From Ruditapes philippinarum (taxonomy: Eukaryota): DNA of 64,000 nucleotides. A model generated the notes under the pieces. That model was given only the letters and a program-made list of their open reading frames with translations. It did not search any database and was not told the DNA's origin. The DNA lies in contig NW_026862094.1 in NCBI RefSeq assembly GCF_026571515.1, positions 62,001 through 126,000 of the forward strand. The letters are read 5' to 3'. A program made the position numbers and the translations under genes. This document shows, one piece after another, positions 19,901-64,000 of this stretch (its first letter is position 1; each line of letters opens with the position of its first letter).

Positions 19901-20216
19901 TCAAAGTTTCCATTGTCTTTTCTAATGCTGCAATGTTCTGTTTGTTTTCTTCATCAGATAGCTTTAACTCTTCAATTTTCTTCATCAGTTCCGCAATCTG
20001 TGACTGACATTGTGTTGTATTGCCGATCAGTAAACTCACAGACTGGATTAATTTCCGTTCTGCCACAGTCAGTCCTGATATCATTTGTTGCATTATTTCC
20101 ATTTTAGAAAGCACTTCTTTTAACGTGACTTCATTCTTGTAATTAATGTCTTCGCTAGTGAACACAGCATTAATGACAAGAATAAGACTTGCGAAGCAAA
20201 ATGGATAACAAGCCAT
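16928..20216 (-). CDS. Secreted C1q-domain-containing protein (signal peptide, coiled coil, gC1q), 277 aa, 4 exons
   Basis: Exons 19814-20216, 19230-19364, 17327-17448, 16928-17101; phases 1/1/0 fit. gC1q motifs SFAAYL, YNKVLQNEAGAYSVNTGIFRVPVSGVYLLSW, IRLNERDEVWI, TSFTGVLL. Confidence 0.92.
17236..17312. repeat. (CAATA)n microsatellite in C1qDC intron 3
   Basis: Directly visible pentanucleotide run. Confidence 0.9.
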
Positions 20217-31319: not shown

Positions 31320-34300
31320 TTAGGGCGCAACTAAAAATAACATACGACAATGTTTAAAGGTCATACAAAAGTTGTGTTATTCATTAGCATAGTTAATATG
31401 ATTTTAGGGCAGACGCATTCTTTTACTTGAGGAACATACGCCTCTTTTCATGGAATACTAGTAGTACTGACGTGTCACATTGAAGGTTCTATGATAACTG
31501 TCATATGAACACATATGCAGATATTTAATTTATCTATTTATCAAATTTACCATATGCAGGGGGCGTGGACGGAAACTTGCAATTGTCATTACTGTCCACG
31601 AACAAGCATAATCGAAATGAGCCTGCAACATTTTCAATTTTCTTGTTTTGTGCGTTCTACATGGATTCTAAATTTCTCTCTAATTAACATCGGTAGAGCG
31701 TGTTTGTGCGAATTAATGCAACATTAAACGTACAACCGCTTCACAACTTGATCTTACCTTAGCATTTGAGATTTATTCAAATTACACCAGCTATACCCAT
31801 TATGATTTCTTTGTAAATATATTCAAAAGGTTTCTTACTTGTAGGAGAACGTTGACAGAAATAGAATTTTAGACTAGCACAGTAGTAGTCATTCCATTTC
31901 TTAGTGGCTGACATTTCAACACAATCTTCCTCTCCAGTTCCTGCGCCATTATTTGGTTCATTTGTGTTCCAATTTGTATAACTGACAGGTTGTTGCGATC
32001 CGTCCCATTTGAATGTATTTTCAGTTTCAAGATCATTCAATCCGATCCAAGCTGTGTCACCATTTCCTTAAAAATGTTTTTATGTATTTATTTAGAAACT
32101 CTTATTAACTTACAGCTAGAAGTCCTTTGTCAACAACTTTTAAAATAAAATCGTTCGTACTTGAGCTTTGCAGATTTATAGTCATCATTCAAAAAAAAAA
32201 TCTGAGTTATTGCCTCACCTTTCAATGTGTCAAGATAGTTGTTAACAGCTTCGCTGTCGGCTTGCGCAAGAGTACCACCGTCTTGAGCGCATTTGGTCTA
32301 GAAAATAAATACTTAAATGAATTATCGTCAACAAATTTTAAGGTTAGTAGTATCATGTTATTTAAAGAAATATTGTTTCCAGAGTGTTACAATATATAAT
32401 CGTATAAAATGTAACATAACAGGGACTTCACACGTAAACTTTTATTGTTGACGTCATTACAGTCATTATATTCATGTCAACATACTCTTAACTGTCAACG
32501 ATTTTGTAAAGTGTTCCTGTCATATGTAAACTTTGGCTACTTACCTTTAGTATTTGAAGCATAATATATATAACATTAAATTTGGAAGGATAATTTGAAA
32601 TACTGATCAAACAAAAGATGAACAAGATGTAATATTTTCATCAAACATAAATACATATTAATATTGTCGTAAGCACAATAAATTATGAATTAGAAACGTC
32701 CATGTTTAAATATCTGGGGTGGGGGTTATCAATGACATAAATCAATGGGAAAACATTGTAATAACTAGTTAGTGGCTTCTTTATTGTGCCACCAATACAA
32801 AAATATTATTTGATTTCCATACAAAATACTAAATCACTATAAATGTTCGTATTCTTAAAACATCAAAAGCAAAAGTAATCGTACAGGCAAGTTGCCAATG
32901 AGTTATGTTTTGGAAAAAATAACTTAACATCAAACATAGAATGCTTTCGGGTAATATCAGCTTTTCAGAGGCATATGCGGCATTAAGAATTTATGCAGAA
33001 AAAAGATAATGGTATTGACAATGTAGCATTTATTTTAAATGTAAGTATAAACATAATTGTAACGTACTGAAGTGATATAAAATTAAGATGCAATTCATTA
33101 AATAACGATAATAACCTATTTAATTATACCAGCCTGTCCGGGTATTACTTCAATGCACACAAACATATATTAGCCGTGTCACGACAAAACCAACATAGTG
33201 CGTTTGCGACCAGCATAGATCCAGACCAGCCCGCGCATCCGCGCAGTCTGATCAGGATCCATGCTGTTCGCTATCAGTTTCTCTACTTGTAATAGGGTTT
33301 GTAAGCGAACAGCATGGATCCATATCTGACTGCAGGTGCGCAGGCTGGTCTGGAGCCATGCTGGTCGCAAACGCACTATGTGGTTTTGTCGTGACACGGC
33401 TCATATTATTATAAACGAGAATCTAGACAGTAGCTAATACATCTGTGTGATATCGTAGATCAGAAGAATTAAAATTTGCCATATACGAGTAAATGATTTA
33501 TGTGTTACTTTTGCGGTCGACCAGTTCACTGTCTCCCCATTTTTGAATATATAACAACGACCATTTGACAAGCTCCAACCACTAGGACATGATTCTACAA
33601 TGAGGAGGGAAACAAATCATAAGATTGGTGTTTAATAAATTTATGCCCTCTTTGTATCACCTTTTTTTTATAAATGTATCAGAAATTTGTACATGATTAT
33701 TAAAAACTAGCATTGTAAAATGTTTGCAATTTTTGAAGATAATTACACGATTCAAAATCACTAACTGACGGTCCGTCGCTATTTTCCCCGCATCATGAAA
33801 TCCTTGAAAATATCATTTCATATTAAATGTATCTAACATTTGTGACGTTTTTCGTTAAAGACAGTGGAAGATCATTTTTAGCAACAACAAAGTATAAAAA
33901 CATGTCAATACAAAGCAAACTAAAATATAAAAAAGATTATCAATAACACGAGAACACACATGTATACATATATATGTAAAATAAAAGACAGCCATTGATC
34001 AAAGAAGTCACTCAAAGGTGCACCGCATCCTTTCTGTCTTCTTCTCCCTGTCTGACTCTTTGTCTTGTGAAGCAAATCAATTTTCGAAATTGATTAATAA
34101 TTTACATACAAGGACCATTCGGAACATGGTGCATATTTTGTGATCGAACATTTCCTTATTGTCCTTATTGTCCAGCAATAAATTGCTATATTCCTTATAA
34201 TACTTACGCTCACAATTACTGCCTGCAAATTGGCTAGTACAGGTACATGTATAACTGCCAGATTGACTTGTGCACGTGCCTCCATTCTTACAAGGGCTTT

Positions 34301-37300: not shown

Positions 37301-40300
37301 TTAAGTAATGTGCCAATTTTCAGATCATTCGCTCACTTCATCTTTTCAAGTATAAACATTTTTATCCTGCAAAGCGGCATAAATTTAGAAGCATTTAAAC
37401 CGATTTAAACTAAAATCGGGATGAGAATCGCACATAGTATCAAATTTCATTTTTAATTCTGCTCTGTGTTTATTTATATATTATCTTTTCATATTTTCCG
37501 TTTAAAGTACCCCAGTTATGTAACATTTTAATTGTAAGTCTTTTTTGCCTTTTTTGCCTTTTTGTGATGTTACAATTCATTCATTTTGTCTTGAACAATT
37601 TTACAAGAAATTGATTCAATTAATCGGCTTCATGACAGAAATGAAAACACGGGAAAGGTGTGTGCTTGTGCGTGCGAGCGTGTGCGCGCATGTGTGTGTA
37701 TGTGTGGAATACTTATGTAAAATACACTTGGAGTATTTATTGAAATGCAAAACAAGTAACGGGTTGTAAACATACCTTTTTCACAAATGTAGTTAGAACT
37801 CGTAGAGCAGTCAAGTTGACTCCATAACCCGTTACTTTGGTCAAACTTGTAGCAGTAAACATTTGAAAATCCGGTACCCCAACCCCCTAACCAATTTCGG
37901 TAGGAATATAGAGTGCCGGATGTTACCCAGTAGAAAGTGTCCTCGTCATTGTGCCACTTAAGTCCAAACCAAACACCCGTTGTTAATGTTGTAACTTAAA
38001 GAAAATAAATACAAATATACACTTATGAGATGATATTAATATTCATATGTATATTTTATTCTATCTATCTAAACTTTAATGGTTAAATAACTAATTAATA
38101 TTATCACCTGAATTCTACGTACGATATACAAAACTTATAAGCTCTACTTTTCAATCGGGATGACCCTTTCCTTGGGTCGACTATGATTGTAGTTCACATT
38201 TTCTTTAATAAGATCAATTTTTGAGGAAAATTGAAGTACTATTGCCTTCTTGTTTATTATTAACATATAAAGCCATACCACAAGTGAAGATATTTCAAAA
38301 ATAACATTATGCTTTGCACTGTTTTGGCTTACTTTTTATGCAGTAGTTAATCAATTTGTTAATGGTGATTTCTTACAAGAATAAAAGGTATTACCTTCAA
38401 ATTTGTTTCTTGTTTGCTATCAAAATTTAAATTAATTTCAAAAGAGCAGATTACTTCACCTCAGACATAAAATGCTTATCAACTTGGTTTACGTGTCAAC
38501 TCTGCATTTTTGCAGAAATGTAAAGCAAAATGTCCGAGGTCTTGTGTAACCCAAACAATATACTTACTCTTTTCCCCAGTATATTCAAGAAAGTTATTTT
38601 CATTTGCGCTATAGATTTCTGCCAGATATCCACTGTAATCATTCACACATGAAGTCTATAAAAAAGTGTATAAAAAAAGAAGCAAAGAATTGATTGTTGT
38701 CGTATCAAAATGTCTAATTGTAACGAATATCTTTGATAGCAACAAAGAAATAAGGGATTTATCAAAATTCATGGATATAATTAAATCAAATATCAAATGC
38801 CTTTGAATTCGGAATTCATACCATTTTTATCACATAGCAGTACCATAAAAACGATATTGCACGATGTATGTGTAAGTGTTATACTATTTCATGCATAAGC
38901 CTGAGCTCTAAATGAACTTCACTGAGGTGTTTGACATGACGGGCCAAGAAATAACTTTTCAAGATTTGTGTTCCGTTTGCTAGAAAAGATGTGTGTAAAG
39001 AATCACTCGGAGGTTCCTAATAACTTCTTTAGTTGCAAAACACGACCTAATATGCAAAAGCTTTGCAACACTTTTCGCTTAAATCGGTCTAAGAACGGCA
39101 CAAAAAATACGATTTTCAAAGTTTTCTTAGTATATTTCTTAATTATCGTTTGCATACCTGTCAGTTTTAAGTGCTCCAGCTGTGTTATGTAAGAAATCAA
39201 ATTTTAACCTTCGCAAAGTATCATTGTCAAATCTATTGAAATGATGTTATGTCGCTAGAGATTCGTACTATTTGATTTCAGTCAAGAAAAAATTCGTATA
39301 AATAGTTTAATGTCCTCTTTATATTTAAAAACACAAGTATTCATTGATGCCAGTCTTTTGTCGCAATACCCGATTTTATAGTTACATGTATGTTAGACTT
39401 ACTTTAGCTGCTTCCCAGGTTTTCTTGCTGGAGCTGAATAGGAAGCATTTGTCACCATAAATATGCCATCCTGTACTACATTGTCCTGTACCTGCAAACA
39501 AGTTATACAAAATGCATCATTACAACACGTTTCAATATGATTTTAATTAACATGTTTAAACATTATCAAAAAAATATCATTATTATCAGAAATAATCAAG
39601 TTGAAATAACATATTGAGAAATGTCATTCATAGTACAATAGACTACCAGTACTCATATTCTTAGTTTACCTGGCATCAAGTTATATATTAAAACTAAATT
39701 TGAACACAGCTTTGAAAATAGAGTACCGCTCTAAAAATTGAGTACCATTCAAAAATTGAGTACCGCTCAAGGTGCTGCTAGAGGGCATGAGGGATGTTGC
39801 ACTTATTCATTATCCCTTAATTACAAACCCAAAACAAATCAGGTCCGTAAATTTATGTTATTTTGCTGTTATTAATGCTTCCGAGTGAGCATCCACTCTT
39901 GTTTTTGTTGAATGCTACAGAAGAACCTTGTTTAACTTTGGTCGTATGTTTTAGGATTTTTTTTTTATGTTTTTATTATTTTTGTTGTTGTTGTTGTTTT
40001 TTTTATTTCAATTTTGTCATAAATTATCCAAAAATATACAATTTTATGGGATAAAGAATTTCACTTAATGATACAAATTGCTTACTGTCACAATCTCTTC
40101 CTCTGAATTGACTTGTACAGCTGCACGTGTAATCTGTACCATCAACCGTGCATGTACCACCATTCTGGCACGGGTTTGGATCGCACGGACCTAACAGAAA
40201 ATAATCTCACTTATTTTAAAACAAGTAAGGAATGCTTATATACGATTTTTTTCATTCGTTATATACATATATAAACATTATATTTTATTATGTAATTTTT

Positions 40301-42499: not shown

Positions 42500-43775
42500 T
42501 TCGAAGCAAACAATCTGTGTCCTTCCTGTTTATCAGAAAGCAGTGCAGCTTCAGGAAAAGTTCTTTCAATATGATATGATAGACACTCCTCCACAATATA
42601 CCGGGTAAGCATGATACTGTGACATATATAGCTGTGAAACTGACTGACACGTGTGATTTGCACAAAACATACAGTAATAATTAAGATTGTAGATAAATAT
42701 AAAGCTTTCAATGTTTTCTTTTGTTTGACACTGTCCCATGCGAAGTTTATTGTAGTGAAAGTTTTAAATGGTAGCTTTCCTCAAGCTGCTTCTATTATAT
42801 AAATTGTAGTTGTTGCCAATAATGTACGCAATGAAAGATAACATTGAAACATAGTTAAACAAAGGTATAATATATAATTCCCTTGTTCTGGAAACATATC
42901 GGTGGGTTATGAAATTTCTCATTGAGCATATTGCGCGTTTGCGATGAATACCTTTATGAATTTGACAGATGTTCAATTAGATTTTAAGTGTACATGCTAA
43001 ACATTTACAATTTGTCATTGCTTATATATGATCCATAAAACGAATCATTATTAACGCATGTGACTGCTTTAAATACATTTATATTGACTTTAAATGTCAT
43101 TTAAAGACATCTGTAAATCCATGAAATATACCCAGGAATGTATAATGTGCAACAAGCAAGTTTGCATTTTCGTCATCAACAAAAGTCGACATATGCAGAT
43201 GTTGTCGTATCCTATAACACGTAAACAGGCGATTATTGCGCAGCGTTATTATAATATCAATGCAAAATAATGATGTACAATATAAGACTGTGTTTTCAAG
43301 GTCCTTATATACTATACAATTTAACAACATTGTAGTTTTCCTTTAACTTGTTTGATTTCAAATTAGGATACGAAGACTGTTATTTCCTTTTTACAATGGA
43401 ATCTAATATAATATTTATTTATAAAAATATACTTTCATAATTTGTAATAGTATTTTGACCCTGAAGAATTTAGGCAGGGGAAATATTCGTACTTTGGCCA
43501 AGGTGAAATTTGTTAATAATATAGACATGGTGTTCTGAAGGTGTTGAAAATTGTTACAATTTCTCTTTGTAATTTGTATGTAGAAAATAAGCAAAATATT
43601 TGTAAATTTCAGATTGTCACCTGCTACAAAACTAGTAAGAAACTTTGATAAACTTTTGCAAAAAAAAATCTAAACATATGACTAACACTTAGTTAAGCAT
43701 TTTCAAAGTTTTTTCTGTAAAATAATTCTATCATTAAAGACATAATGCGGATTCTGAAGTGTTCTGTGTCTTCAT

Positions 43776-44010
43776 GAGCCGCGTCACGACAAAACCAACA
43801 TAGTGCGTTTGCGACCAGCATGGATCCAGACCAGCCTGCGCATCCGCGCAGTCTGATCAGGATCCATGCTGCTCACTGTCATTTTCTCCACTTGTAATAG
43901 AGTTGGTAAGCAAACAGCATGGATCCTGGTCAGACTGCGCGGATGCGCAGGCTGGTTTGGATCCATGCTGGTTGCAAATCCATTATGCTGGTTTTGTTGT
44001 GACGCGGCTC
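43776..44010. mobile_element. Palindromic MITE (Sola-like), copy 2
   Basis: GAGCCGCGTCAC ... GTGACGCGGCTC; same family as 33171 and 58736. TSD imperfect. Confidence 0.8.
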
Positions 44011-45119
44011 ATTTGTTCTGTAGGGCAATGGACGCAAAGTGTTTTTTTTTTTTTTTTTCAATGTTTGTCATATATCCTTGAATAATGCCAAGCAGCAAGT
44101 TCTTACCATGTGCATAAATCAATGAAAACTTTGAACGCCCTCTCGGAAGTGAAAAATGCTATTTTTGGTCCCCTGCCCGTTTTACACATTTTCCAGCTTT
44201 GCTATGGTTAGTGATGACTTGATAATAATGACCCAATCACACTGGACCTAGAGTTTTGTTTAAAGCGACATGTCTCCAGATTCATGATTTTATTAATGAA
44301 ATAACAATAATACAAATTAAAAAGTAAAAATATTGTCAAGTGAGCAAAGAAAGTAATTTACACAGGACAAACAGCACTTACAAATCTACGAAAATTACCA
44401 AAAGTAGGTCTGAATAAGCAAATATAGCTTGTACTGCGTTAGTCTCCCAGTAGGAACATAGTGATATATACCTCAAAATCAATCAGTAATTGCACAAAAT
44501 ATGTATAATTACGTTATTTAATTGTGAATATGTTTGCATTTTTACTCTGAGTACATGTTTCTTCAGGTTGATTTTTTGCATATCGGCATGCATCTTTAAG
44601 ATCTTCAAGTATCAATAGAGAGTTGAATGTATGAAATATTTTCAATCGTCAAGTTTTACCAGCATTTGTGTTCTAAGATTTTCAGAAATGAGGCAGACGT
44701 GCGTAAACTCTGTTTAAACGAAATAGTTAATCACCTCTGGATTGTATGAGGAAAGTGCAAATAGGACATCGGCTACCTGATCAGAGAGACATCCACTGCG
44801 CACTTGTAATCATATTACTTATTTACGTCTGAATATTGTCCTGATGTGTATATATCCATATACACTACGTGCACGACAATGAAATAGACATAACAATGAT
44901 ATTAATGCTGAAACATGTTCAATCGTTTCCATTGTATCATCGACGACAGCCTCGCAAAAACGGTGGTCAGGGTCGTGAATTTAAACCCACATAAAGTTTA
45001 TATCAACTGTGTTATAGTCGTGCTAGGGAATTATTGAGATGTTGGCGGCATGAATAAGGAATACCGTTATGGCCATCTTGGTTATACATTAAAATACACA
45101 GTGCAACAATGTGATAACT

Positions 45120-47616: not shown

Positions 47617-47792
47617 TTAACATATAGTAAAATCTGTTGACCAGTTACACTAACAGTGAAAACTGTTGACCAACTAGATATCTAGGAAAATATATGTTAT
47701 TTTGCCGTGAATTTCTTAGTTGTATCGTAATGTAATTAAATACAATATATTCTACATCTCGCAAACCAGAACAACTAAAATGTAAAAGAAAC

Positions 47793-49900
47793 CAAGGGGC
47801 AGGACGTGAAGTGGTTGCACACTTGGTTCAAGCGAGCGAATTGGTTGCAAACTTGACAAAATGGCGAACACGGCTTGATTTTTTTAAACGGGTGAACGAA
47901 TTATTGCCAGACAAGTGGGTTTCTTTGTTATTTTGTAGTTCATTAGTATGTCTATTCCATAATGCAATATATATGCCACACTCGGTTAAAGGTTTCAGCA
48001 TCCTAGATTCTGTTTTGACGAAGTTATTGAAGATATAAACTGATCATGTAGATATTTTAAAATTTGACATATGACTGTTCTGGTCGGGTTTTCTCCTTAT
48101 TTATTCGAATTTGTAAGTTTTGAACTGCATTTAACAATAACAAAATATATTTCTGTCAATGCGGTACAAATGGTTTTTGTTCGCAAGTCCGAAGATAACG
48201 TGCAATACACAAAAATATCTTGTTCAAGCAGACTTATACTTCAAGCATTTTAGGTTGCAAACTTTTGTGTTAATATTGTGGCATGCATATTTTAGCGAGG
48301 AATAACTAATCATTTTTTCAAAAATAATTAGCAATATTAAGGCAATTATACCCGCTCATCTTATAAGAAATATATATACAAATTGTGCACGCGTGCAGAT
48401 ATATCCTAACACAGGGTCTTTCAAATAGATATAAAACACAATACAGTGTATGCTAAATTGTTCAGTTGTGTTTTTTCTCCTCGATATACTTCTTTTCTTT
48501 TTACAAAGTCATAGGACTTTTTTTATATCTTGGCATGACTAACTGTAAAGGAAAAGAAGAAAAAATGGCAACAAACAGCTTCCATTATTGTTCTTTTTTT
48601 GAGATTTGAAATGAATTTGATTATATAGTAGATAAAAACTATATTAACATTGACCCAATGGCATTCTTTAAAATGTTCCTTATTATTGACCAATCGAAAC
48701 ATCTTCCAAATTCCATAACTCGAACAATGACTTCAAGTAGTTTTGTCACGTATAAGTCAATGTAAATAAACAATCGTATATCATTTATATTATGAAGTAA
48801 TAATCAAAATCATCTTTAGAATACCAATTGACATAATTAGGATGTACCTTAAATCCGAAATATTGTAAACAAGCATATCATTTTCACTTTTGGTTTGTGA
48901 AAATATTTTAAGTGCATTTACATACTTTATGTCTAAAGCAACTACTGATCTTTACATACGAAACAAACAAATTAATATTTCTTGTGGTTTTGATAAACTT
49001 TGGACATTTTTTCGAGTAACATCGTGTGTGTGCACATGTCCTTATGTTTATGATGAAAATAATTCACTTACATACAACAGTACTTTCACATACGTTTGTT
49101 TTGTATGTAGTTTTCATTTGCATTTTACATATGATGATAGATTTTAGATTTGAAATACCAATAAATATTTTTCTATATGCTATTATTTTGTTTGCAGGCT
49201 TTTACTGATGATTATAGTATTGAACTGAGAACCATGTAATTTGAAACAAAAAGTGCATAATTGTTGTAAAAGAAGAAAGTATAAATAACATTTATAACAA
49301 AAACAAGTAACAGAACATAAATTATGTCAATAATTGCCATTGAAAATTGGTTAATAAATATAACCTTCTACACTCCTTTTGAAAAGTTTTACTATGGATT
49401 TCAATAGAATAAGAATAAGTTTGCAACCAAAAATGCTTGAAGTATAAGTCTGCAACCAAAATGTGCTTGAACAAGATATTTTTGTGTATTGAACGTTATC
49501 TTCGGACTTGCAAACTAAACTATTTGTACAGCATTGACAGAAACATATTTTGTTATTGTTAAATGCAGTTCAAAACTTACAAATTCGAATAAATTAGGAG
49601 AAAAAACGACAAGAACAGTCTTATGTCAAATTTCAAAATATCTACATGATCAGTTTATATCTACAATATCTTCGTCAAAACAGAATTTAGGATGCTGAAA
49701 CCTTTAACCGTGTAAGGCATATATATTACATTGTGGAATAGACATACTTATGAACGTCAAAATATGAAAGAAACCCACTCGCCTGGCAATAATTCGTTCA
49801 CCCGTTTCGAAAAATCACGCCGTGTTCGCCATTTTGTCAAGTTTGCAACCAATTCGCTCGCTTGAACCAAGTGTGCTACCACTTCACGACCTGCCCCTTG
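47793..49900. mobile_element. Second foldback non-autonomous DNA transposon, ~470-bp inverted arms, 5-bp TSD GAAAC
   Basis: GAAAC|CAAGGGGCAGGACGTGAAGTG ... CACTTCACGACCTGCCCCTTG|GAAAC. Arms ~47793-48263 and ~49417-49900. Confidence 0.85.
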
Positions 49901-50184
49901 GAAACTATTTAAGTGTTTTTGTCGTATTTTCTTCTTTTTCTATTTAGTCATGCCAGTTAAACGTACAGTAGAGTCTGCTGACCAGTTAAACATGTAGAAG
50001 AATCTGCTGACAAGTTAAACGTACAGTGAAAATAGCTGACCACTTCTTTAGATATACAGAGAAAATTCTGTTTAGACGTACATTTCTATTTTTCACACTG
50101 TTAGTAAATATAATAAATTAACAATAGTATATGATTTATGATGGTGTGCCGTTTTCAATCATGCCGTTTTGAACCAGGGATTAA

Positions 50185-50490
50185 TTATGACGTCATTTAA
50201 TCCTAATCCTTGATAATCCTAATCCCCGAAACAATGGTTTTATTGAAAAAACTAAACAGGATTAATCTCTACTTATGATTATTCAATCATCTTAAACAAT
50301 GGGCATTAAAATCTTAAACAATGGGCATTGAAATATTAAACAATGGGCATTGAAATATTAAACTATACGTCATTTAATCCTAATCCGAGATAATCATAAT
50401 CGCCCGAAATAATGGTTGTATTGAAAATCGTAACAGGATTAATCTTTATTTATTATTATCCAATCGTCTTAAACAATGGGCATTGAAATG
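50185..50490. repeat. ~180-bp imperfect direct duplication with an internal ~21-bp tandem, upstream of the Polinton genes
   Basis: ACGTCATTTAATCCTAATCC at ~50190 and ~50367; TTAAACAATGGGCATT four times. Confidence 0.8.
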
Positions 50491-50737
50491 TAATCATTTC
50501 TTAAAGAATGGAGAATTGAAATGTAATTATAAGAAAGGATTCTATTTCAATGCACATTGTTTAAGGTATGGTTTAGGTAATCCATACTTTCAAGTGTATT
50601 GTTAAGATAAAATAGCCGGATTAGACAGACTGGTGTATTGAAATGATTGAAGAGCTGATCCTTTTTCGCACTTAGAACAGAAAAGAAATTAACAGATAAA
50701 CATTGACTGATATAGGTACATCTTTAATGATATTATA

Positions 50738-51148
50738 ATGAACATGGCTGCAAACGAAATTATATCACCCAGTGAGGCCGAAGAAGATCTGTCTCTCAGT
50801 ATTGAAGACAGTGAATTCGCTAGACCGCTTACTACAAAATATGTCGAAGTTTCAAGTTTAAATGGTACTAAATCCAGCGATGACTGCATGGTGTGCGCCC
50901 AGAGTATCCCGAAGAATCGATTTACCTTCCTTGCACAGATTATTGCAATCTACGGTATTATCATTGTGGCAGCAGTGAATCTCTCTGTTCGTCCGGACGG
51001 GCCTAATAAAGAACTTTGGGTTGCGTTGTTAGCCTCGGCTCTAGGTTGTGTTCTTCCGGCACCGGGGCTGAAGTATAGGAAGCCGGTGCAATCTATATCA
51101 AGCGGTTGGTTGTCGTCAGAGAGAAAAAATGAGAGAGACGGGCAATGA
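50738..51148 (+). CDS. Polinton small membrane protein (two hydrophobic segments), 136 aa
   Basis: FLAQIIAIYGIIIVAAVNLS and LWVALLASALGCVLPAP; overlaps the integrase start by 20 nt. Confidence 0.75.
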   Translation: MNMAANEIISPSEAEEDLSLSIEDSEFARPLTTKYVEVSSLNGTKSSDDCMVCAQSIPKNRFTFLAQIIAIYGIIIVAAVNLSVRPDGPNKELWVALLASALGCVLPAPGLKYRKPVQSISSGWLSSERKNERDGQ

Positions 51149-52274
51149 AACTAAACTGGAATACCTTAAACGTATTTACACCGACCCTTCGCACCCGGCC
51201 AGTTTCGGTGGGCGGCAACGATTGAAAAGGGAAGCAGACAGAGAAGGAAAATTCCATATCAGCAATAAAGAAATAGTTGAGTTTTTAGAATCACAGGATA
51301 CTTACAGCACGACCAGGAGAGTTCACAGGCGGTTCAAAAGAAACAGAATAAGAGTGAGCGGTATTCACATGCAATATGATATGGATTTATGCGACATGAT
51401 GAAAATGAGGCGCTTCCGGTACAACAAGGGAACCAGATATCTTCTCACTGTCATTGATGTATTTAGCAGGTATGCATTCGTAAGGCCTCTGCGCTCTAAG
51501 ACAGGACAAGCAGTGGCCAGTGCTCTAGAAGACATTCTGACCTCGGGCCCGAAACCGGCTCGTTGCAGATCGGACAGGGGCATGGAGTTCCGATGCAAGC
51601 CCGTGACAGACCTTCTAATGCGCCTAGGGATTAAACAGTATTTCAGTGCGTCCGCCTTGAAGTGTCAGCCTGTGGAGCGTTTTAATCAAACTCTGAAAGG
51701 CGCTATATACAAGTGGTGCTACGAGAACAGATCGTTCTCGTATGTTCCTGTGCTGGAAATGTTGGTGCACAGTTACAATCACCGCGTGCATTCATCACTA
51801 TTTGGACTCAGTCCAAGCGAGGTTTCAGAGTCAAACCAAGCGAGGCTCTGGAATTTGATGTACGTAGAAAATGCTAGTAGCAGTAAGAGTGGTGAGCGGC
51901 GAAAAGTCAGATTGTTTAAATACAGTGTAGGAGATCTGGTAAGGGTCAGCTTGGCTAAGCGTACATTTGAAAGATCTTACAACCAAAAATTCACATCTCA
52001 GATCTACAGAATACGAGGGCGGGTCTACCGTGATAACTTGCCAGTGTATTATCTGATGGACCTCGAAGAAAAACCAATAGAATCAACTTATTATGAAGCG
52101 GAACTGCAACGAGTGCGGAAGAATCTTGACAACATACAGGAATGGGAAATTGAAAAAATACTCAAGACGAAAAAATCAGGAAAGGGGCAGTTGGTGCTAG
52201 TTCGATACCGCGGCCTTGGACCAAGCTTCGACAGGTGGATATTGAAGTCTTCAATAAGCAGTAATCGTAAATGA
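51129..52274 (+). CDS. Polinton retroviral-like (rve) integrase with C-terminal chromodomain, 381 aa
   Basis: YTDPSHPASFGG start; DDE triad in DMDLCDM / SDRGMEF / VERFNQTLK; IDVFSRYA; chromodomain WEIEKILK...VRYRG...FDRWI. Confidence 0.95.
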   Translation: MRETGNETKLEYLKRIYTDPSHPASFGGRQRLKREADREGKFHISNKEIVEFLESQDTYSTTRRVHRRFKRNRIRVSGIHMQYDMDLCDMMKMRRFRYNKGTRYLLTVIDVFSRYAFVRPLRSKTGQAVASALEDILTSGPKPARCRSDRGMEFRCKPVTDLLMRLGIKQYFSASALKCQPVERFNQTLKGAIYKWCYENRSFSYVPVLEMLVHSYNHRVHSSLFGLSPSEVSESNQARLWNLMYVENASSSKSGERRKVRLFKYSVGDLVRVSLAKRTFERSYNQKFTSQIYRIRGRVYRDNLPVYYLMDLEEKPIESTYYEAELQRVRKNLDNIQEWEIEKILKTKKSGKGQLVLVRYRGLGPSFDRWILKSSISSNRK

Positions 52275-52900: not shown

Positions 52901-53353
52901 ATGGATACTAGAGGTGAACAATCCCGACTTCTGTACATCCCGGATTTCCAGGCTTGGGAAAGGATATATCAGAGCAAAGTTCCACGTCGTCCATTGTCAG
53001 AAGGAAAAAGGAGTACTGTGCATGTAAGAAATCCTGCAGACGTGAAACTTCGTTTCGTGTCACCTGTTGAAGAGACGGTTGATCAAGCCGAGAGTGAAAT
53101 CAGTTCAAAATCAAAGGCCGACTTTCGAGCTAAAAAAAGAAAAATTCAAGATACAGAAAGTCTGCCGAAGCAGCTGAGTGTTAAAGACGTAGTCCGGGCA
53201 TCTACTTCTACTGCTACCACTAGCTCTACTTCATTACAAAAGCAGAAAAGAAAAAAGCACAGACAGGAACAAGGAGTGAAGAAAATCGGTGTAAAAGACT
53301 CTAAGAAATTTAGTTACAGGACACTCAACGATATATTCAGTAAGTCGGGATAA
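52901..53353 (+). CDS. Polinton basic Lys/Arg-rich protein (putative core/DNA-binding), 150 aa
   Basis: YIPD..AW, VSPVE..VDQAESE, basic tracts and C-terminal DIF. Stop overlaps the capsid ATG (TAATG). Confidence 0.7.
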   Translation: MDTRGEQSRLLYIPDFQAWERIYQSKVPRRPLSEGKRSTVHVRNPADVKLRFVSPVEETVDQAESEISSKSKADFRAKKRKIQDTESLPKQLSVKDVVRASTSTATTSSTSLQKQKRKKHRQEQGVKKIGVKDSKKFSYRTLNDIFSKSG

Positions 53354-55107
53354 TGTCGGTTATTTCTCCACTAAGCGGTAGTGAAAGTGCGCCTGAAGCC
53401 CTGGATATATTCCGTATGTACCCGAACCAAGTCGCCGTACAGAATTACTATCAAGAAGACATCAGACCAGTAAGTCAGTTTGGTGGCATTGACGCTCCGC
53501 TGGAGTTCGAAACATCTCTTCAAGGAGATAGCTATTGTGAATTACCGTCTTCCCGACTATTTGTAAGAGCTCAAATTCTCAATGCAGACGGTACTGCATG
53601 CAGCGAGGATGTTAAAATATCTCCATGTGATCTGTTTTTCCATTCAATGTTCAAAAAGGTTGACATATACATGAATAGAACGCTTGTTTCCAGTTCCGGA
53701 GACTTATACCCCTACAAAAGCTTTTTCAACAAGTTATTTCGATGTGGCGTGAACACTGGCAATGGAACACTGTCAGAGAGTGAACTATTTTCTGGAAATG
53801 ATTCGGGTTTTCCGGCAGAAACAAATCCTAACGCAGGTAAGTTGCTGTATGCAACATGTGTCCATTTATTACTGATTATTACTGATTTCTTATGAATGAA
53901 TTAAATTATTTTATTGTTTATCGTTTTTGGTATTGATAAATAAACTTGACAAGTTAATAAAGAAGTAAAATAGAGCTATCAAAAAGGAAACANNNNNNNN
54001 NNNNNNNNNNNNNNNNNNNNNNNNNNNNNNNNNNNNNNNNNNNNNNNNNNNNNNNNNNNNNNNNNNNNNNNNNNNNNNNNNNNNNNNNNNNNNNNNNNNN
54101 NNNNNNNNNNNNNNNNNNNNNNNNNNNNNNNGCTATGCTATTCTATTCTATGCTATGAAATGCTTTGCTATGCTATGCCATGCCATGCCTTGCTATGCTC
54201 AAACTATTATTAATTTTATTTGCCTTCCTTTACTGCAGGTAATTTCTCATTGTTCCAGCGATACAAAGTCGGTCGTGGTTCTAAGCCATTTGACATGGTA
54301 GGGCTTCCACTGAATGACCTAATGGAACTTGATCGTTACCTTATCAATGGCGTTCATTTGAGAATCGTGCTTCATCGGAACAGCGCAGAGTTTTGTCTAA
54401 TAAGCGATGAAGACAATAATAATGGTGGATATCAAGTAAAACTACTCGACTGTTACCTTAGAATACTGAAATGTAAACCGAATCCAGCCATACTGGTCGC
54501 TCATAGTAAGGTACACAAGGGGCTCACTGCCAAGTATCCCTACATAAGAACCGAAACGAAAAGTGCTAATATTGCTAGCGGTCAGAGTGTGTTTTCATGG
54601 GATCATATTAACGCTTCCTACCTGCCAAAGTTGGTTATAGTTTCTTTTGCAGATAGCGCTGCAGTGCTGGGCTCGCTGAAATTGAACCCATTTAACATGG
54701 AACACTTTGATGTTCGCCAAATAAGTCTTTATGTAAATGGTATACCTTGTTCAGGGTGCCCAATCAATGTAAACTACAACCAAGATCTGACAGCGGAAGT
54801 GTTCGACCGGATGTACGGATTTGGCAAAGGGCGGCCATTATACACAGCAATGGGTGGTATCAGCGGCAAAGACCGTGGGAATGTCGGTATAAACAGAGCT
54901 GACCTAAAAAATGGAAGGGCTATATACGTATTCGATCTTGCTCCAATTATAGAAGAGCCATTTCATTTTGAGCTACAACACAGTGGAACGCTATCAATGC
55001 ACGTGAAATTTGGCAGCTCTCTTGCGCAAAATGTTGCTTGTATTTTTTATGCTGAATATGATGCTTTGATGGAAATTGATGAAACGCGTGGCGTGAAAAT
55101 TGTTTAA
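53353..55107 (+). CDS. Polinton major capsid protein (double jelly-roll), 450 aa, 2 exons
   Basis: Exons 53353-53836 and 54239-55107 with a phase-1 GTAAGT...TGCAG intron. Motifs LDIF..P.Q, PLEF, HSMF..VD, YPYK, RYLINGV.LR, LPK.V.V.F, NPFN..HFD, FDL.P, G.L...V.F, YAEY..L.EI. Confidence 0.9.
53993..54200. other. Assembly gap (53993-54131) and GCTAT-type microsatellite inside the capsid intron
   Basis: N run followed by GCTAT/GCCAT pentamers. Confidence 0.95.
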
Positions 55108-56620: not shown

Positions 56621-56743
56621 TTGGAGACCACCTGTCAGCTGGTACCCAGGCCCTTTTAGTCACGTGACAACACAGTTTATAAGCAAATGCTGAAGGTCTT
56701 TTTAAATCACTTGACCCTTGGAAATTCATCTGTTATAGAACAA

Positions 56744-58220
56744 ATGGAAAAGCTTTATATTTTGATTAGCCTTACGGCGCTATTTGCATTTAGCAGTAGT
56801 TTATGTGTGACAGAAGATGAAGGGAAAGATGGTATTGATTTGAGGTGTAGTTCCAGGTGGAGTGGAGAAGGTTCTAAAATCCGTCGTCTTATAGTACACA
56901 GCTGGGACGGCTCCTGCCACTTTCCGGAAGGGGGCCTTTTGACGCTTTACGGCGCAGATCAGGATTGTTTCACCTGTTCGAAGTCTATCCATGAGCGAAT
57001 GATGGTTAACGGAGAGAAATGTACAGTCGCTGTAAGTCACACATTCTTTTTTTATTTTAAATTTTACGATGAAATGTTAAGTGTTAAATCCTTGAAAATG
57101 ATATTTACTTTTTATCTCCCCCGAAAAGTGCATGAAAGGATCCAGCCCTGCATGTTTCTGTGCAGCGTCTCCGATATTAAAATACAATGTATGAAACCTC
57201 ATTTGTTCGGTAAATTCTTCTTTTTGCATTGCCTTCTGCTCGAACTGTCTGTATATTTTTAGCAGAAAACACGTTTGATAGATCCCTGGTATTATAATTA
57301 TATTTAATTAACAAAAGACATTTATCTGCAGGTTCCTACAGCAAGGTCAGAATCGAAAATTTCCGGAAGCAGCAGAACCACAACTGGGTCAATAGATTTC
57401 ACGACAGAGCTCTACGAGGCAGTCTGGCAGGTAAAAGGTAGCATCCATGGCACCACAACTACAGCAGCTGAAACCTATAGTGCATCCTCAAGTTTGCAAG
57501 GTACTTACATAATATTTGTTTTATTTACGCCTTTAAAACTAATTATATAATTTGCAGTTTGAATAAACTATTATTTTAAATGCGGATGCGTGCATTTTTA
57601 TGTACAGCACAACTTTTTAACTTCCCTTTCCAACTTGAGGTCATATTTATTCGATTTTTTTTTTTGTTGTTGAAAATTTAACTATTTGTTGCCATTTGTG
57701 TTATAAGAATGTAATGCACCTAAATTATAGATTAATTCTGTTGAGATTTGATCATTCTGGTCAGGATTGCACTGTATTTTCAACCTTTTTACAGACAGTG
57801 GTTCGATCCCCAGATGGACATATGGGCTGTTGTCAACTTTAGCGGTAACTGTCCTGGTCTTATTCGTGCTCCTAGTACTGTTGCTATTGCGTTATAGGAG
57901 ACAACGGGCGTATATTTGCTGTAAACCAAGAACAAGTCCAAGTGTAAGCATGGAATCTGTTATGATATATCCGTTGCCGACATTACAACTTTAATATTTG
58001 TAAATTTACAGAACTATGCATATTGGTGACAGTCGCACTGGTTGTAAAATTTCTGAAGGGTTTTAATTGGCAGCCTCATCCTCTCCAACAACAACAACAA
58101 CAACAACAACAACATCGTAGATTTCAAGGAGGTAGAGAGCTTGTGATTAATCAACCCCATAGGGCACTACGACCACAGAGGGCTCGGAGGCAAGTCCAAA
58201 GATTACAAATATCGTGGTAA
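56744..58220 (+). CDS. Spliced type I membrane protein inside the Polinton region, unknown family
   Basis: Exons 56744-57031 (signal peptide, 6 Cys), 57332-57500 (Ser/Thr-rich), 57795-57943 (transmembrane, RYRR, CC), probable 58074-58220 (polyQ, Arg-rich). Phases 0/1/0 fit; last exon ambiguous. Confidence 0.7.
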
Positions 58221-58735
58221 AAATAAGCTCGCGCCAGTGTGTGTGTGTATTTTATTTCTGATGTGACACCATGTGTTTTCTTAGAGTGCTACTTAGTTGT
58301 GGACACCATGTGTTTTCTTAGAGTGCTACTTAGTTGTGTGTCACTTATTGGCACTGGGATTTTCTGTGTATGATTTCTTTCTGTTACATCATGTATAAAT
58401 AGTAATTTCTTATGTCTTTCTATATTAAATGAGTAGAAAAATGTGCCGCAGTATATGTGCATGAATCGTTAGTGTTTCTGGTGTGTATGAGTTAAGTATC
58501 TAAGACGAAACATTTCAAAGAATTGTTATCTGTGTTGACGTGACAACCAACGTTCCAAGTGTTCTATATTTTGTTTCCCGGTGTTCTATATTTTGTCTCA
58601 TATATGTCATAGTAAAGTGTAAATGACAAGTTTTAAAACTCGTTTGATTACCTACACTATAATCTTTGAAATAGTGAAGATGTCAGACTTAAAGATGGCA
58701 GATTTTCTTTCATGAATTCTTGGTTATCTTAATTT

Positions 58736-58922
58736 GAGCCGTGTCACGACAAAACCAACATAGTGGGTTTGCGACCAGCATGGATCCTTTACAAACCCTA
58801 TTACAAGTAGAGAAACTGATAGCGACCAGCATGGATCCTGATCAGACTGCGCGGATGCGCAGGCTGGTCTGGATCCATGCTGGTCGCAAACCCACTATGT
58901 TGGTTTTGTCATGACACGGCTC
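58736..58922. mobile_element. Palindromic MITE (Sola-like), copy 3, internally deleted, nested in the Polinton region
   Basis: ATTT|GAGCCGTGTCACGAC ... GTCATGACACGGCTC|ATTT. Confidence 0.85.
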
Positions 58923-59784
58923 ATTTAATTTTTTTTTGTATAAAGACGGGTTTTTTCGTGGAATGCTTCAGTTATATACTAAGCGAAAGTTCTAACACCC
59001 CCACACATTTGCCTTTCAGCTAGTCATAAATTGGTTGTCTTATTACATAGTATTATAATTAAAATGGGTGTTAGAAGTTTCGACAATACACCGAGTCATG
59101 ACACACGAAAATATACACCGGATGATGCATGTTTTTGTTTAATTGTTATTCTTACTAGATAGTTTTACCAGTGTAGAATATTGTTTAAAATCGAAAATAA
59201 ATCAGTGAAATATTCATTTTCGTTTTACTCTGTTGTCCGTGAACCAGACCTTCATGTTCTATACATGGTCTCCTATTACCGGGAATTAATGTCTTGCCAT
59301 TTAACGGAAGAAAAAATAAGAATACGTTTAGCTTTATATAAAAATAGCATTATCATCATTAATTTTCATGGATCACTTTTAATCTTCGATGGATGCTTAG
59401 TTTTTCTTCTATTATATGGCAAGCTTTAACAATAGGCCTATTGGAGGAACAATAGCATATTTACAGTAACGTTACGAAGAATGATAATCACGTTCGTCTA
59501 TACAAAATGTGTGATCATTATCTTCGAGAAATGATTAATAGGGCAACAGTGGCTGAACGCATTAAATAATGCAGATAACAAGTTAGAACGCAAAACATTT
59601 GATTGCAGTATATAACAGGTTTAATGGCAAAGAACAGTGACGATTTAAAATAAATAATAAAGACATAATCTGGCAAAATTTGACAGGTTAAATATCAAAA
59701 GAAAAAAAAAAGAACAACTACAAAACACTGAAAAGAAAAGACATCAAAAATAAATATAATCCTTCACTGATTTTTTTACACATA

Positions 59785-60516
59785 CTACAACGAGAATTCG
59801 CCGTCCCCCGAATAACACTCTTTCAACAGTCTAAAAACTTCCTTGCTCTGATTTGGCCTGTCAATTTCAAAAGCGCAGTCATATTCTTTTCTTATTTTCG
59901 TTATCCAGAATATGCTACTGTCTGTCACATAATGCAATCTCTTGCAAGTCAGTTTAAAATGGAACAAATCAGTCATTTTAAGGTGATGTGCAATTTTTTG
60001 CAGAATAACGTCTGGCAGTCATAAAAGGAACACATCATCTGAACCTTGGGTTGTGTCCATGTCACTGTCCTCACTTGACCACCAGTCACTGTTTTCTTGT
60101 TCAGGCTCTTCCCAGCGCATGTCCGATGACCTAGACTGGTCCTGGTTGTCTTCGTCTGCGGATTGGCCACTTTCGTCATCACTTATGACGACGGCAACAT
60201 CCGAGCAATCGGAATACCTCAGTCTCATCCTTAGCTGGCTGATTCCAGGCAGACCTGAATCAACATTTTCCTTGTTCTCGTCGGTCAGATCGATCGGCAT
60301 CAGTGCATTTCGTCCAACATTATCCTGATATAATGCCGCCTGCTCGCAGGTGTCCACAATTACCCCGATTGAAGAACATAATCGAATCAGCCCCATTTTA
60401 GAAAGTGTAACCTGAGTGCCTGAACGCACATTTATTATAGTTCCAACAGCCTTTCCGTTCACTATGTCCATTTTCAAGTAATTTTCAATATCGAGAGAAA
60501 CACAATTTGAAGCCAT
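59785..60516 (-). CDS. Accessory protein with acidic linker and C-terminal F-box, interrupted by one in-frame TGA (60021-60019)
   Basis: MASNC... 165-aa ORF continues in frame past the stop: DVFLL*LPDVILQKIAHHLKMTDLFHFKLTCKRLHYVTDSSIFW, matching the F-box consensus LP.EIL..I...L...DL.....CK.......W. Confidence 0.7.
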
Positions 60517-61878
60517 TTTTAAGTTGTTTTTTTTAATCGACCTTACACTAAAGTATATGATGTAGATTTGTGACGGTTTGATAAAAAGCAACAGATATAA
60601 AGGGTCGCTAAAACAATACAAAACAAACACATAATATACATTGTCCAATCAAAACGTAGCTGAGACGCGGCGTCTCGTGGCACGTTGTACTCGTGTCACG
60701 TTCGGTACACTGAATTGACACTGATTGTGCCAATGCTAGACAAAAGAGATAAAAGGATATAAATCACGTGGGAAAATAGTACTGACACGTTACAATTCAA
60801 TGTAGCATTCAGTACTAAATAAGATAAATGGTACCTTTTATTGGTACTAATTGAATGATCTGATTGTGCCGTTTTATGTGTTTTTTTTTGTTGTTGTTTT
60901 TCAAATTACCATTAAAAGACGGGATAAAGCTTTACTACTTACCTTGAATGAGAAAAATTTTGAGCGTTGATGTAATAATTTTAACTTTACTCAAGTGCCA
61001 CGCCTTCTCTGGCACCGCCCCTACCTAACAACGTTTGTATTAAAAAATACAAAACAAAACAAATTAAAAACAACCAAAACAAAACAAAAAAATTAAAATA
61101 AACAAGAGATGTATACGTTTCTGTAATTATTTATGTATCAAAAAGTGTTTACGGATATATATTTATATATAATTATACCTTAAAATGATATTCATAAACA
61201 GACATATCTATGAAAATCACATTCTGGTTAAGACAGACAAAAGCACTTTCAATAACATCAGTGTTGCAATTCAGTGCATACAGTATTCAATAAAAAACGG
61301 ACGTTGTCGAATGACAGATGACAACCGATTAATTAAGGAGGCTGTTTTCAACAGAATTATTGGTTTTCAGGGAAAACGGCAGTACCGGGCCTGTAGAGCC
61401 GTATTATCTTTGGAAAATGTATTAATTACAAGTTACCCCATAAGTCTTGAAAAGTGAGTAGAACTTTTTCATTTTCTTACAGGCACATTAGCTCTCGGAA
61501 TCATGTTTTTTTTGGATATATTAATAAAATGTTTCTACTGAAAGTAATTGCTATTTCAAAATCATTGTTCATTTATGAATATTTAAAGCACTCGTTTTGC
61601 AATGTTTCCAATGCTTCTTGTTTACATTTCTTACATGCATAGATCGATTTCAAGCGCTTTCTATGAATTGAAGCAAAATATGTGCATAAAAAACTCTTGA
61701 CTATTATAGTTTTAGTCTTGTTTTAATATAAACAAGCTCGATAAACATGTACTATTCATTTGTGTGCTATTTTAAATACAAGAATTAATAGGGACACATA
61801 TCATTGTAAACAAAGATAGTAATTTTGCGGATTTTGATAACGTTACATTGTCACCACTTTTCATTGTATTTCTTTGAG

Positions 61879-62438
61879 GATATTTTCATTTCTGAGCGCT
61901 AGTGTGGCTTTAACCATTTCAGTATATTTTATGTGTATTTGAAAATCTGCGGCAATCTATTGATATTTTCATTTCTGAGCGCTAGTGTGGCTTTAACCAT
62001 TTCAGTATATTTTATGTGTATTTGAAAATGTGCGGCAATCTATTGACATTTTCGTTTCTGAGCGCTAGTGGGGCTTTAACCATTTCAGTATATTTTATGT
62101 GTATTTGAAAATGTGCGGCAATCTATTGATATTTTCGTTTCTGAGCGCTAGTGGGGCTTTAACCATTTCAGTATATTGTATGTGTATTTGAAAATGTGCG
62201 GCAATCTATTGATATTTTCGTTTCTGAGCGCTAGTGGGGCTTTAACCATTTCAGTATATTTTATGTGTATTTGAAAATGTGCGGCAATCTATTGATATTT
62301 TCGTTTCTGAGCGCTAGTGGGGCTTTAACCATTTCAGTATATTGTATGTGTATTTGAAAATGTGCGGCAATCTATTGATATTTTCATTTCTGAGCGCTAG
62401 TGGGGCTTTAACCATTTAAGTATATTTTATGTGTATTT
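61879..62438. repeat. 83-bp tandem array, ~6.7 near-identical copies
   Basis: CTGAGCGCTAG at 61892, 61975, 62058, 62141, 62224, 62307 and 62390. Confidence 0.95.
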
Positions 62439-62514: not shown

Positions 62515-62800
62515 CATGTATATACATGTATTACCGTCACAAGATTATACATCTTCTCTAGAGTTAATTAAGCCTAGCCGCCCCTATCATGTATATACAT
62601 GAGTTACCGTCACTAGATTATACATGTTTGCTACAGTTAAGCCTAGCAGCCCCGATCATGTACATACATGAGTTACCGTCACTAGATTATACATGTTTGC
62701 TACAGTTAAGCCTAGCAGCCCCGATCATGTACATACATGAGTTACCGTCACTAGATTATACATGTTCGCTACAGTTAAGCCCCCGAACATGTACATACAT
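62515..62800. repeat. 69-bp tandem array, ~4 copies
   Basis: TTACCGTCA at 62531, 62604, 62673 and 62742. Confidence 0.9.
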
Positions 62801-62904: not shown

Positions 62905-64000
62905 ATGGCAAATTCCAGCGACGAAAACGAGTTCATAAGAAACCTTCTATTCCCAGATGATGAAAACGTAACGTATGAACCAAGCTCACCGGAAGTGCGA
63001 GATCAGCTAAGAAAACTAAATGAAAAGTTACTGGATGGTTCTGTGTGTCCAAAATGTGGAAAGCAATTTTTTAATAAATCGAATTCAATAAAACACCAGA
63101 GATCGGCAGTGTGTGATAAAAAAAAGGAAAAACGCTGTCAAACTTGTAAAAAGGAGTTCAGGAAACCGTGTGAATTAAAGAGACATATGCTACAATGTGC
63201 TGCTATGACAGAGCAATGTACTTTATGCCAGAAGAAGTTTAAATCACGAAAATATCTGGACCTTCATATGCAACGGTCCCATGAGAACGCTTGTCCAATA
63301 TGTGGTGAAAATTTTGTGGACAACAGAGAACAGCTTGTTGCTCACGCAAGAAGACATTTCAAGGATGACTATCTAACACTGCCTCAAGTGAAAGCACTTA
63401 GGAAAATAACTGGTAAATCGGCGTTGCTTCCGGTGGACCGGAATAGTAATTCTAGTGATTCATCTAACGCCGTTCGTGCTTCTAGTGATCCAATTCCAGG
63501 ACCATCCGGTGCGCCGAACATGGATCCGGCCTTTCAGCAAACATCAAGACCGATACACGGAAACGCTGGTATAGAGATATCGGTTACTCCAAGTGGCACA
63601 GAAAAATATTCCCTGTTGGCGCTGTTTGACGGGAAACGACAACAAATAAGTTGGAACCTAGAGACGCATTTACAAAGGTAACACATTTTTATCATGTAAT
63701 TTATATACATCAAATATGTGTGTGTGAATTAATGTATAGCATAAATACGAACTAAATTTAAACGCATGTGATTATCAAATTTATATACATGTACACATTA
63801 TAATTATGAATATCGATATCAATTTTTTTCCGAAGCAAGAAAATATAATGCCTCTGGAGCACCCATTGAATAAAATATTCATTCAAACAGTTTATAGAAG
63901 TATATATATTTCACTTCCCTTTGCAGATGGACCAATGTGCGTTGGTATTTGAATGCAAAATGCAGGATGATTCGGTACGACAACGAAGGAAATATAAGGT
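62905..64000 (+). CDS. Zinc-finger protein, probably the N-terminus of the Polinton protein-primed DNA polymerase B; spliced, runs off the window
   Basis: Exon 62905-63677 has four C2H2/C2HC fingers. A phase-2 intron (63678-63926) joins to give LLALFDGKRQQISWNLETHLQR-WTNVRWYLNAKCRMIR, which resembles the region before the polymerase domains in Polinton pPolB. No catalytic motifs are in the window. Confidence 0.65.

Follow-up and report, generated by a model that had tools for sequence, protein, structure and literature searches.

We found that an F-box gene in a Polinton/Maverick-like element of Ruditapes philippinarum is divided by a single in-frame UGA, and that this stop, judged by the ends of homologous proteins, is old and not a recent lesion. 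The feature is real: we propose that programmed readthrough of the UGA gates the F-box, and we consider it likely, if well short of certain, that the gene yields mostly a 165-aa protein and, in smaller amount, a 243-aa SCF adaptor. All coordinates (Table 1) refer to the window, the whole stretch of 64,000 nucleotides that was analysed.

Table 1. Positions, strand and basis of the features discussed.
Feature	Positions	Strand	Basis
Integrase, retroviral-type, with chromodomain	51129..52274	+	PF00665 E 1.2e-13, PF00385 E 8e-4
Probable major capsid gene, two pieces	53353..55107	+	sequence pattern
First poly(A)-signal hexamer (ATTAAA) past ORF2	59620..59625	-	sequence scan
ORF2, 77 codons after the TGA, in frame, ending at TAG	59785..60018	-	Pfam; relative P0010
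F-box domain, residues 164-205, across the stop	59902..60027	-	PF00646 E 3.1e-8
Predicted extended mRNA stem-loop, nt 13-98 (U of UGA = 1)	59924..60009	-	folding
Splice donor/acceptor look-alike, 63 nt, frame-preserving, spanning the stop	60012..60074	-	sequence; candidate
In-frame TGA (codon 166, 60021-60019) with context UGA-CUG, proposed readthrough site	60016..60021	-	
ORF1, 165 aa, short terminated product	60019..60516	-	ORF list; homologs with same start and end
DDVF, residues 160-163, candidate RSK-kinase docking site	60028..60039	-	motif match
Linker motifs IDLT (75-78), KEN (82-84), RMRL (96-99)	60220..60294	-	conserved in disordered linker
Small folded N-terminal domain, ~residues 7-55, three strands and one helix	60352..60498	-	AlphaFold2
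C2H2 zinc-finger ORF	62905..64000	+	PF00096 E 1.6e-11; continues past window end

Read on the minus strand from 60516 to 59785, the gene is one frame of 243 codons, ATG to TAG, whose only internal stop is the TGA at codon 166. The earlier note, made from the letters alone, had seen that two separately listed ORFs (60019-60648 and 59785-59976) share this frame and that the TGA stands immediately before LPDVILQKI in a TGA-C context; we confirmed each of these observations, the context being TGA-CTG. The true start of the upstream ORF is ATG 60516, where seven homologs (P0003, P0004, P0008, P0009, P0012, P0015 and P0017) also begin. The F-box check that the note had called for was run: with X at the stop, the 243-codon frame matched PF00646 at 33.6 bits (gathering cut-off 20.5) over profile positions 1-42 of 43, and F-box-like PF12937 at E 4e-7, and ORF1 alone matched no Pfam family at E<=1. 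Residues 161-243, again with X, scored 36.1 bits, residues 167-243 (the 77-codon stop-to-stop frame past the TGA) 33.3 bits and residues 169-243 27.0 bits; the product of the first ATG past the stop, residue 181, scored 17.3 bits, below the cut-off. These scores indicate that the F-box starts at the stop without an ATG of its own, and initiation of the domain at its own ATG is ruled out. Because there is no ATG before residue 181, the earlier note's claim of an F-box in the extended form only is true of products initiated at an ATG; it does not hold for the 77-codon frame taken alone. ORF2 holds the F-box and two further helices. Base composition alone gives a chance of ~0.003 for a 77-codon open frame past a stop, and a sequence scan found no poly(A) hexamer between the two stops.

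Structural searches added little to the profile match. The ORF2 model has helices at residues 9-18, 21-37, 43-56 and 61-75 with a pLDDT of only 60, and no F-box structure was among the listed fold matches of its F-box part; neither the ORF1 nor the ORF2 model had a significant match in fold searches. The best hit of a PDB sequence search was FBXO2 (E 0.4), another search gave one unrelated match, and the ORF1 profile had no match in the PDB. In the ESM Atlas, an F-box cluster stood at rank 3 for ORF2 (score 0.90), and residues 1-112 found only unnamed clusters at scores of at least 0.9.

The evidence on the age of the stop comes from homologous proteins. A search with ORF1 gave 3 matches among 53 candidates, a search of representatives gave 7 matches, one of them the window's own piece, and an ORF1 profile search gave 14 among 2359 candidates. 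Homolog size ranges of 133-426, 42-135 and 34-314 aa were searched; longer fusions were covered by the representatives search only, in which members inside 50% clusters are hidden. Five of the 14 profile matches extend to residue 165, and each of them ends at that point, to within one codon and as seen at the protein level only; the remaining nine are fragments or leave the frame before the stop. An uninterrupted fused form was found in none of the 14 profile matches, the three single-sequence matches or the seven representatives. The five site-reaching homologs form two further lineages (P0003/P0004, 73% identical to each other, and P0009/P0012/P0014, 81-96%), which are 41-53% identical to the window protein; counted from the VF of DDVF, the end of the third lineage comes one codon sooner. 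The last two residues of all six proteins are a hydrophobic residue and Leu, and in the window this pair fills F-box profile positions 1-2, with Leu-Pro past the stop. Two close relatives, P0002 and P0007 (84% and 79%), leave the frame upstream of the stop and have a common out-of-frame tail past ~residue 142, which suggests, from the proteins, a sub-lineage with one inherited frameshift. The downstream part is represented by P0006 (85%), whose contig is exactly as long as that of P0002, and by P0010, a separate predicted ORF, known as protein only, that is 46% identical to ORF2 over 71 columns and has the same end. P0010 has no Pfam F-box match and lacks the first F-box residues. Its predicted start Met corresponds to window residue 173, which is Gln in the window, where the first ATG is residue 181; the two thus have no common start. 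Pattern scans of genome contigs for relatives gave 87 and 185 matches, none confirmed, and tblastn against phages found no relative.

The nucleotides around the stop resemble those of type II readthrough sites, in which UGA is followed by a CUA/CGG-like triplet and, after a spacer of 8-9 nt, by a 3' stem-loop, at a conserved stop position. The UGA-CUG found here falls within UGACUD, and UGA-C occurs at none of seven other stops examined in the element. The alphaviral hexamer is given as UGACGV or UGACUD, with UGACUG for Trocara virus (PMC13517186). In alphaviruses and kelch, stems that begin 8-9 nt past the UGA (VEEV, EEEV, WEEV and kelch) boost readthrough several-fold (PMC3159437). By prediction, and on one sequence, the stem-loop in the window begins after a 9-nt spacer, which becomes 16 nt in the 122-nt fold and the 150-nt centroid, where the basal helix is absent. 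Its core, nt 20-89 (60002-59933), is present in every fold long enough to contain it, with stem pair probabilities of 0.84-1.0 and two loop-closing pairs at 0.6-0.7. Folds anchored at the stop gave z of +0.35, -2.95, -2.89, -2.49 and -2.88 at 60, 80, 100, 120 and 150 nt (150 shuffles for the target, 15 per control), and none of 54 control starts in ORFs of the element had a z as low. A second set of five windows gave z of -1.92 (122 nt), -3.06, -0.82 (straddling the stop), -2.98 and -1.97. Sliding 80-nt windows without the stop anchor gave -1.2 to -2.0 near the stop, and two other 80-nt windows in the gene reach -2.2 to -2.3. Neither the stem-loop, nor the DDVF motif, nor the 63-nt intron look-alike had been remarked in the earlier note.

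The short protein is predicted to consist of a small domain and a long disordered tail. AlphaFold2 gave a pLDDT of 72-81 for residues 11-50, with strands and a helix at 12-50 and disorder beyond. Residues 7-55 aligned with PURA, PC4, BPSL1147 and MoSub1 at VIA-align Z 3.2-3.7, tied with unrelated folds (rmsd 3.6-5.8 over 45-52 aligned residues; Foldseek E 0.7-1.1), a weak and tentative PC4/PUR likeness; a homodimer prediction for residues 1-64 scored 0.31 against a mark of 0.32. Among the six proteins that extend as far as the stop, the linker motifs recur as KEN in 5/6, RMRL in 6/6 and [VIL]DL[TA] in 3/6; IDLT is SIM-like (putatively SUMO-binding), and KEN and the D-box-like RMRL are candidate APC/C degrons. 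At the end, D-x-V-F is found in all six proteins and [DE][DE]VF in five (P0003 has DNVF), in a region that is predicted to be disordered and is acidic. Identity to four homologs is 4-5/6 at the DDVF end and 11-15/47 in the preceding acidic stretch. Viral and bacterial proteins use motifs of this type to bind RSK kinases, and the docking loop on the kinase side is conserved between C. elegans and human (PMC8812568, PMC11984722); the sequence match suggests that DDVF before the stop may function in RSK docking. The presence of DDVF means that the conserved protein end need not come from the F-box, and so weakens one of the arguments for readthrough.

We weighed these observations together. In favor of readthrough we count the conserved stop, the hydrophobic-Leu end, the conserved downstream protein, UGA-CUG, the stem-loop and the lack of an intervening poly(A) hexamer. 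Against it we count that the homologs are known as proteins only and P0010 is not tied to an ORF1 homolog; that DDVF alone can account for the conserved end; that the hairpin signal is gone at 60 nt and weak across the stop, with a variable basal helix; that the third lineage stops one codon sooner, and P0002 and P0007 leave the frame before the stop; and that the F-box model is unmatched, P0010 is without a Pfam F-box and the family is rich in broken copies. Abundant cellular readthrough, moreover, was not found outside Pancrustacea (PMC5100048). Programmed readthrough, one of two explanations offered by the earlier note, is supported by stop conservation, UGA-CUG and the predicted stem-loop, and probably occurs.

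Under this preferred reading, the gene would be an accessory host-manipulation gene of the element that is decoded through programmed stop-codon readthrough. The majority of ribosomes would terminate at the UGA and release the 165-aa protein, with its small folded domain, its acidic disordered tail carrying SIM-, KEN- and D-box-like motifs, and its DDVF end. A minority, aided by UGA-CUG and the stem-loop, would place an amino acid at the stop and extend the chain by 77 residues; the F-box would then be complete, and the partner-binding N-terminal region that both forms have would be docked on Skp1-Cul1 (SCF). A single mRNA would in this way supply plain binder and ubiquitin-ligase adaptor at a fixed ratio. 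A more elaborate version, which we consider rather unlikely, is a switch between hijacking and destruction. The short protein would hold host RSK through its terminal DDVF and keep it active or retarget it, in the manner of cardiovirus L and KSHV ORF45 with their DDVF motifs (PMC8812568, PMC11984722), and the long protein, with the F-box set behind DDVF, would bring RSK, or some other partner common to both forms, to SCF to be ubiquitylated. Alternatively, since the two sites adjoin, Skp1 might take the place of RSK.

The window is AT-rich animal DNA with assembly gaps (GC ~0.28-0.40), and the host element, which is Polinton/Maverick-like, occupies it from ~50 kb to the window end; its second end lies outside the window. 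A retroviral-type integrase, the Polinton/Maverick mark, is present as Pfam rve and chromodomain matches. The capsid and the polymerase start were tentatively recognised by sequence pattern, with no library match. By this pattern 53353-55107 is the probable capsid gene; its pieces had no match in Pfam, PHROG or NCBIfam (both pieces) or in the PDB (3' piece). This capsid-like gene is interrupted by an N gap (53993-54131) and by an insertion of low-complexity sequence, either an intron or an assembly problem. The zinc-finger ORF is probably the start (N-terminus) of the protein-primed polymerase gene, an identity we infer, and its splice sites mark a 249-nt GT-AG intron (63678-63926); the element therefore has spliceosomal introns. 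The F-box gene lies on the minus strand between the capsid-like gene and the zinc-finger ORF. Two tandem arrays, 61879-62438 (83 bp x 6.7, 97% matches) and 62515-62781 (69 bp x 3.8), fall between the F-box and zinc-finger genes, where a divergent promoter region is expected.

Other features of the window were recorded alongside. An apparent multi-exon gene at 56687-58220 (+) combines a signal-peptide-like start with an ectodomain that contains Cys and with a transmembrane exon (57767-57994); it matched no Pfam family over the cut-off and is a candidate membrane accessory gene of the element. A 123-nt direct repeat and 22-bp tandem units at 50190-50500, 5' of the first element ORF, may mark the left end of the element. 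Three copies of a host MITE bounded by terminal inverted repeats are present (58732-58926, 33167-33387 and 43772-44014), the first within the element, which indicates that this element copy is aging. Two long-inverted-repeat elements, 14590-16567 and 47771-49922 (whose arms reach 293 and 406 nt at 90-99% complementarity), are probably non-autonomous DNA transposons. Host genes are represented by minus-strand exons at 6788-10509 (presumably HSP70-12-like, by sequence pattern), 19806-20240 (a secreted coiled-coil exon) and 37630-37995 (a C-type lectin exon, PF00059).

Could the stop instead be the true end of the short protein, kept for its C-terminal DDVF, with the F-box frame a separately made second gene? 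Translation of such a gene would begin at the CUG past the stop, through re-initiation or leaky scanning, or would use another transcript. In every lineage a DDVF-type motif does lie 1-2 residues short of the end, and ORF2 alone scores a full F-box and opens with CTG, a near-cognate start; a downstream hairpin can also help weak initiation. However, a stand-alone F-box with ~38 trailing residues has no substrate-binding part and could therefore only be an SCF decoy, and two separate genes would require neither the exact in-frame abutment nor the upstream hydrophobic-Leu profile match (+2.8 bits). We regard this explanation as improbable.

Slightly less probable again is alternative splicing, in which the 63-nt look-alike intron would be removed from some transcripts together with the stop, and its retention would give the short form. 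The candidate has a GTGAG donor and a pyrimidine-rich CAG acceptor in the same phase, an equally good pair spans none of 1728 control codons under thresholds taken from the candidate itself, and spliceosomal introns do exist in the element. Looser rules, however, span 6-19% of control codons; the pyrimidine tract consists of Val-Phe-Leu-Leu codons, and codon choice alone gives such a pair at 2.6% (strict) to 27% (loose). Splicing would also delete DDVF and the Leu-Pro of the F-box, lowering its score from 36.1 to 27.0 bits. The sole measured intron of the element is 249 nt, the homolog searches returned no spliced fused protein, and the hairpin is left unexplained.

A recent nonsense mutation in a decaying 243-aa F-box gene, the other explanation raised by the earlier note, or an untranslated F-box remnant, is very unlikely. 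This copy does show decay, in the host MITE and the split capsid-like gene, and 9/14 matching sister sequences are frameshifted or fragmentary. Yet all five homologs that reach the site end at the same point, which largely refutes a recent lesion: the chance of two other lineages stopping within one codon of the site through random lesions is ~1.5e-4. Nor does any of the three sets of matches contain an uninterrupted form, and ORF2 is open and 46% conserved, about like ORF1 (41-53%). Least probable of all is specialised recoding of the UGA, by insertion of selenocysteine or by editing of the RNA. Selenoproteins are classically recognised by a conserved in-frame UGA, and the stop sits at a duplex base in one fold, but the Rfam search of 58900-60700 found neither SECIS nor any other meaningful family (four weak matches, E 0.36-8.6), the F-box position concerned is variable and non-catalytic, and ADAR disfavours a 5' G neighbour. 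The molluscan precedent for such recoding is selenoprotein P, with many recoded UGAs according to a title in the reference list of PMC8310308.

If programmed readthrough is correct, this would be the first such case among Polinton-type DNA viruses, and also the first in which recoding decides whether an F-box is present. Table 2 of a 2026 review (PMC13517186) places animal-virus readthrough so far in RNA viruses and retroviruses only (Retroviridae, Togaviridae, Reoviridae and Dicistroviridae) and includes no DNA virus; conserved readthrough in a dsDNA element that integrates would widen that range and would show that Polintons have tuned host-manipulation genes. Our literature searches found no report of readthrough in Polintons and, judged by titles, none of a readthrough-set viral F-box or a Polinton F-box. 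The main texts of PMC8502044, PMC11071296, PMC11161782, PMC11131425 and bioRxiv 2023.08.22.554363 and the text supplement of PMC8502044 contain no F-box, although genome-map figures and preprint supplements could hold one. In all the database entries that we found, gene callers had split this gene, so ligase modules hidden in the same way may go unnoticed in other Polinton genes. An adaptor that lacks its F-box is the usual laboratory dominant-negative, and the production of both adaptor forms from one mRNA at a set ratio would be a new use of recoding.

Several known systems resemble parts of this arrangement. Poxvirus ANK/F-box proteins (PRANC, PF09372), to which the earlier note had likened the gene, also have the partner-binding part at the N-terminus and the F-box at the C-terminus, opposite to the order in most cellular F-box proteins (PMC4353913). 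The likeness is one of architecture: the poxvirus proteins have ankyrin repeats and a truncated F-box, and the available sections of PMC4353913 mention no recoding, whereas the present F-box is nearly full-length against its profile. PRANC membership was rejected, as Pfam gave no ankyrin match and no PF09372 match at E<=1. A DNA-virus case of UGA recoding is that of the poxvirus selenoproteins (PMC8310308). The RSK hijackers cardiovirus L, KSHV ORF45, VZV ORF11 and Yersinia YopM similarly have D/E-D/E-V-F in an acidic disordered stretch (PMC8812568, PMC11984722); they are not homologous to the window protein, in which the motif adjoins the stop and the F-box start and RSK binding is putative. 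Adintovirus/Polinton oncoids likewise are motif-rich accessory genes upstream of a probable polymerase gene (PMC8502044), but membership was rejected, with LxCxE, CR1 and CxxC in none of the six proteins.

The proposed decoding itself resembles type II readthrough in alphavirus nsP3/nsP4, coltivirus VP9 and the furo- and tobraviruses (UGA-CUA/CGG), which likewise has UGA-C, an extended stem-loop 8-9 nt past the stop and two products with a common N-terminus (PMC3159437, PMC13517186). In those viruses the extension is a polymerase or capsid part, whereas here it would be an SCF-recruiting domain in a dsDNA Polinton-like element. Among recoding systems, the nearest analogue is Drosophila kelch, a cullin-RING ligase adaptor gene that also combines UGA readthrough with a 3' stem-loop (bioRxiv 2020.06.22.165522; PMC3159437). 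In kelch, however, the ligase subunit is ORF1 itself (bioRxiv 2020.06.22.165522), whereas in the window gene it is the extension that would recruit the ligase, and readthrough would then switch ligase coupling on.
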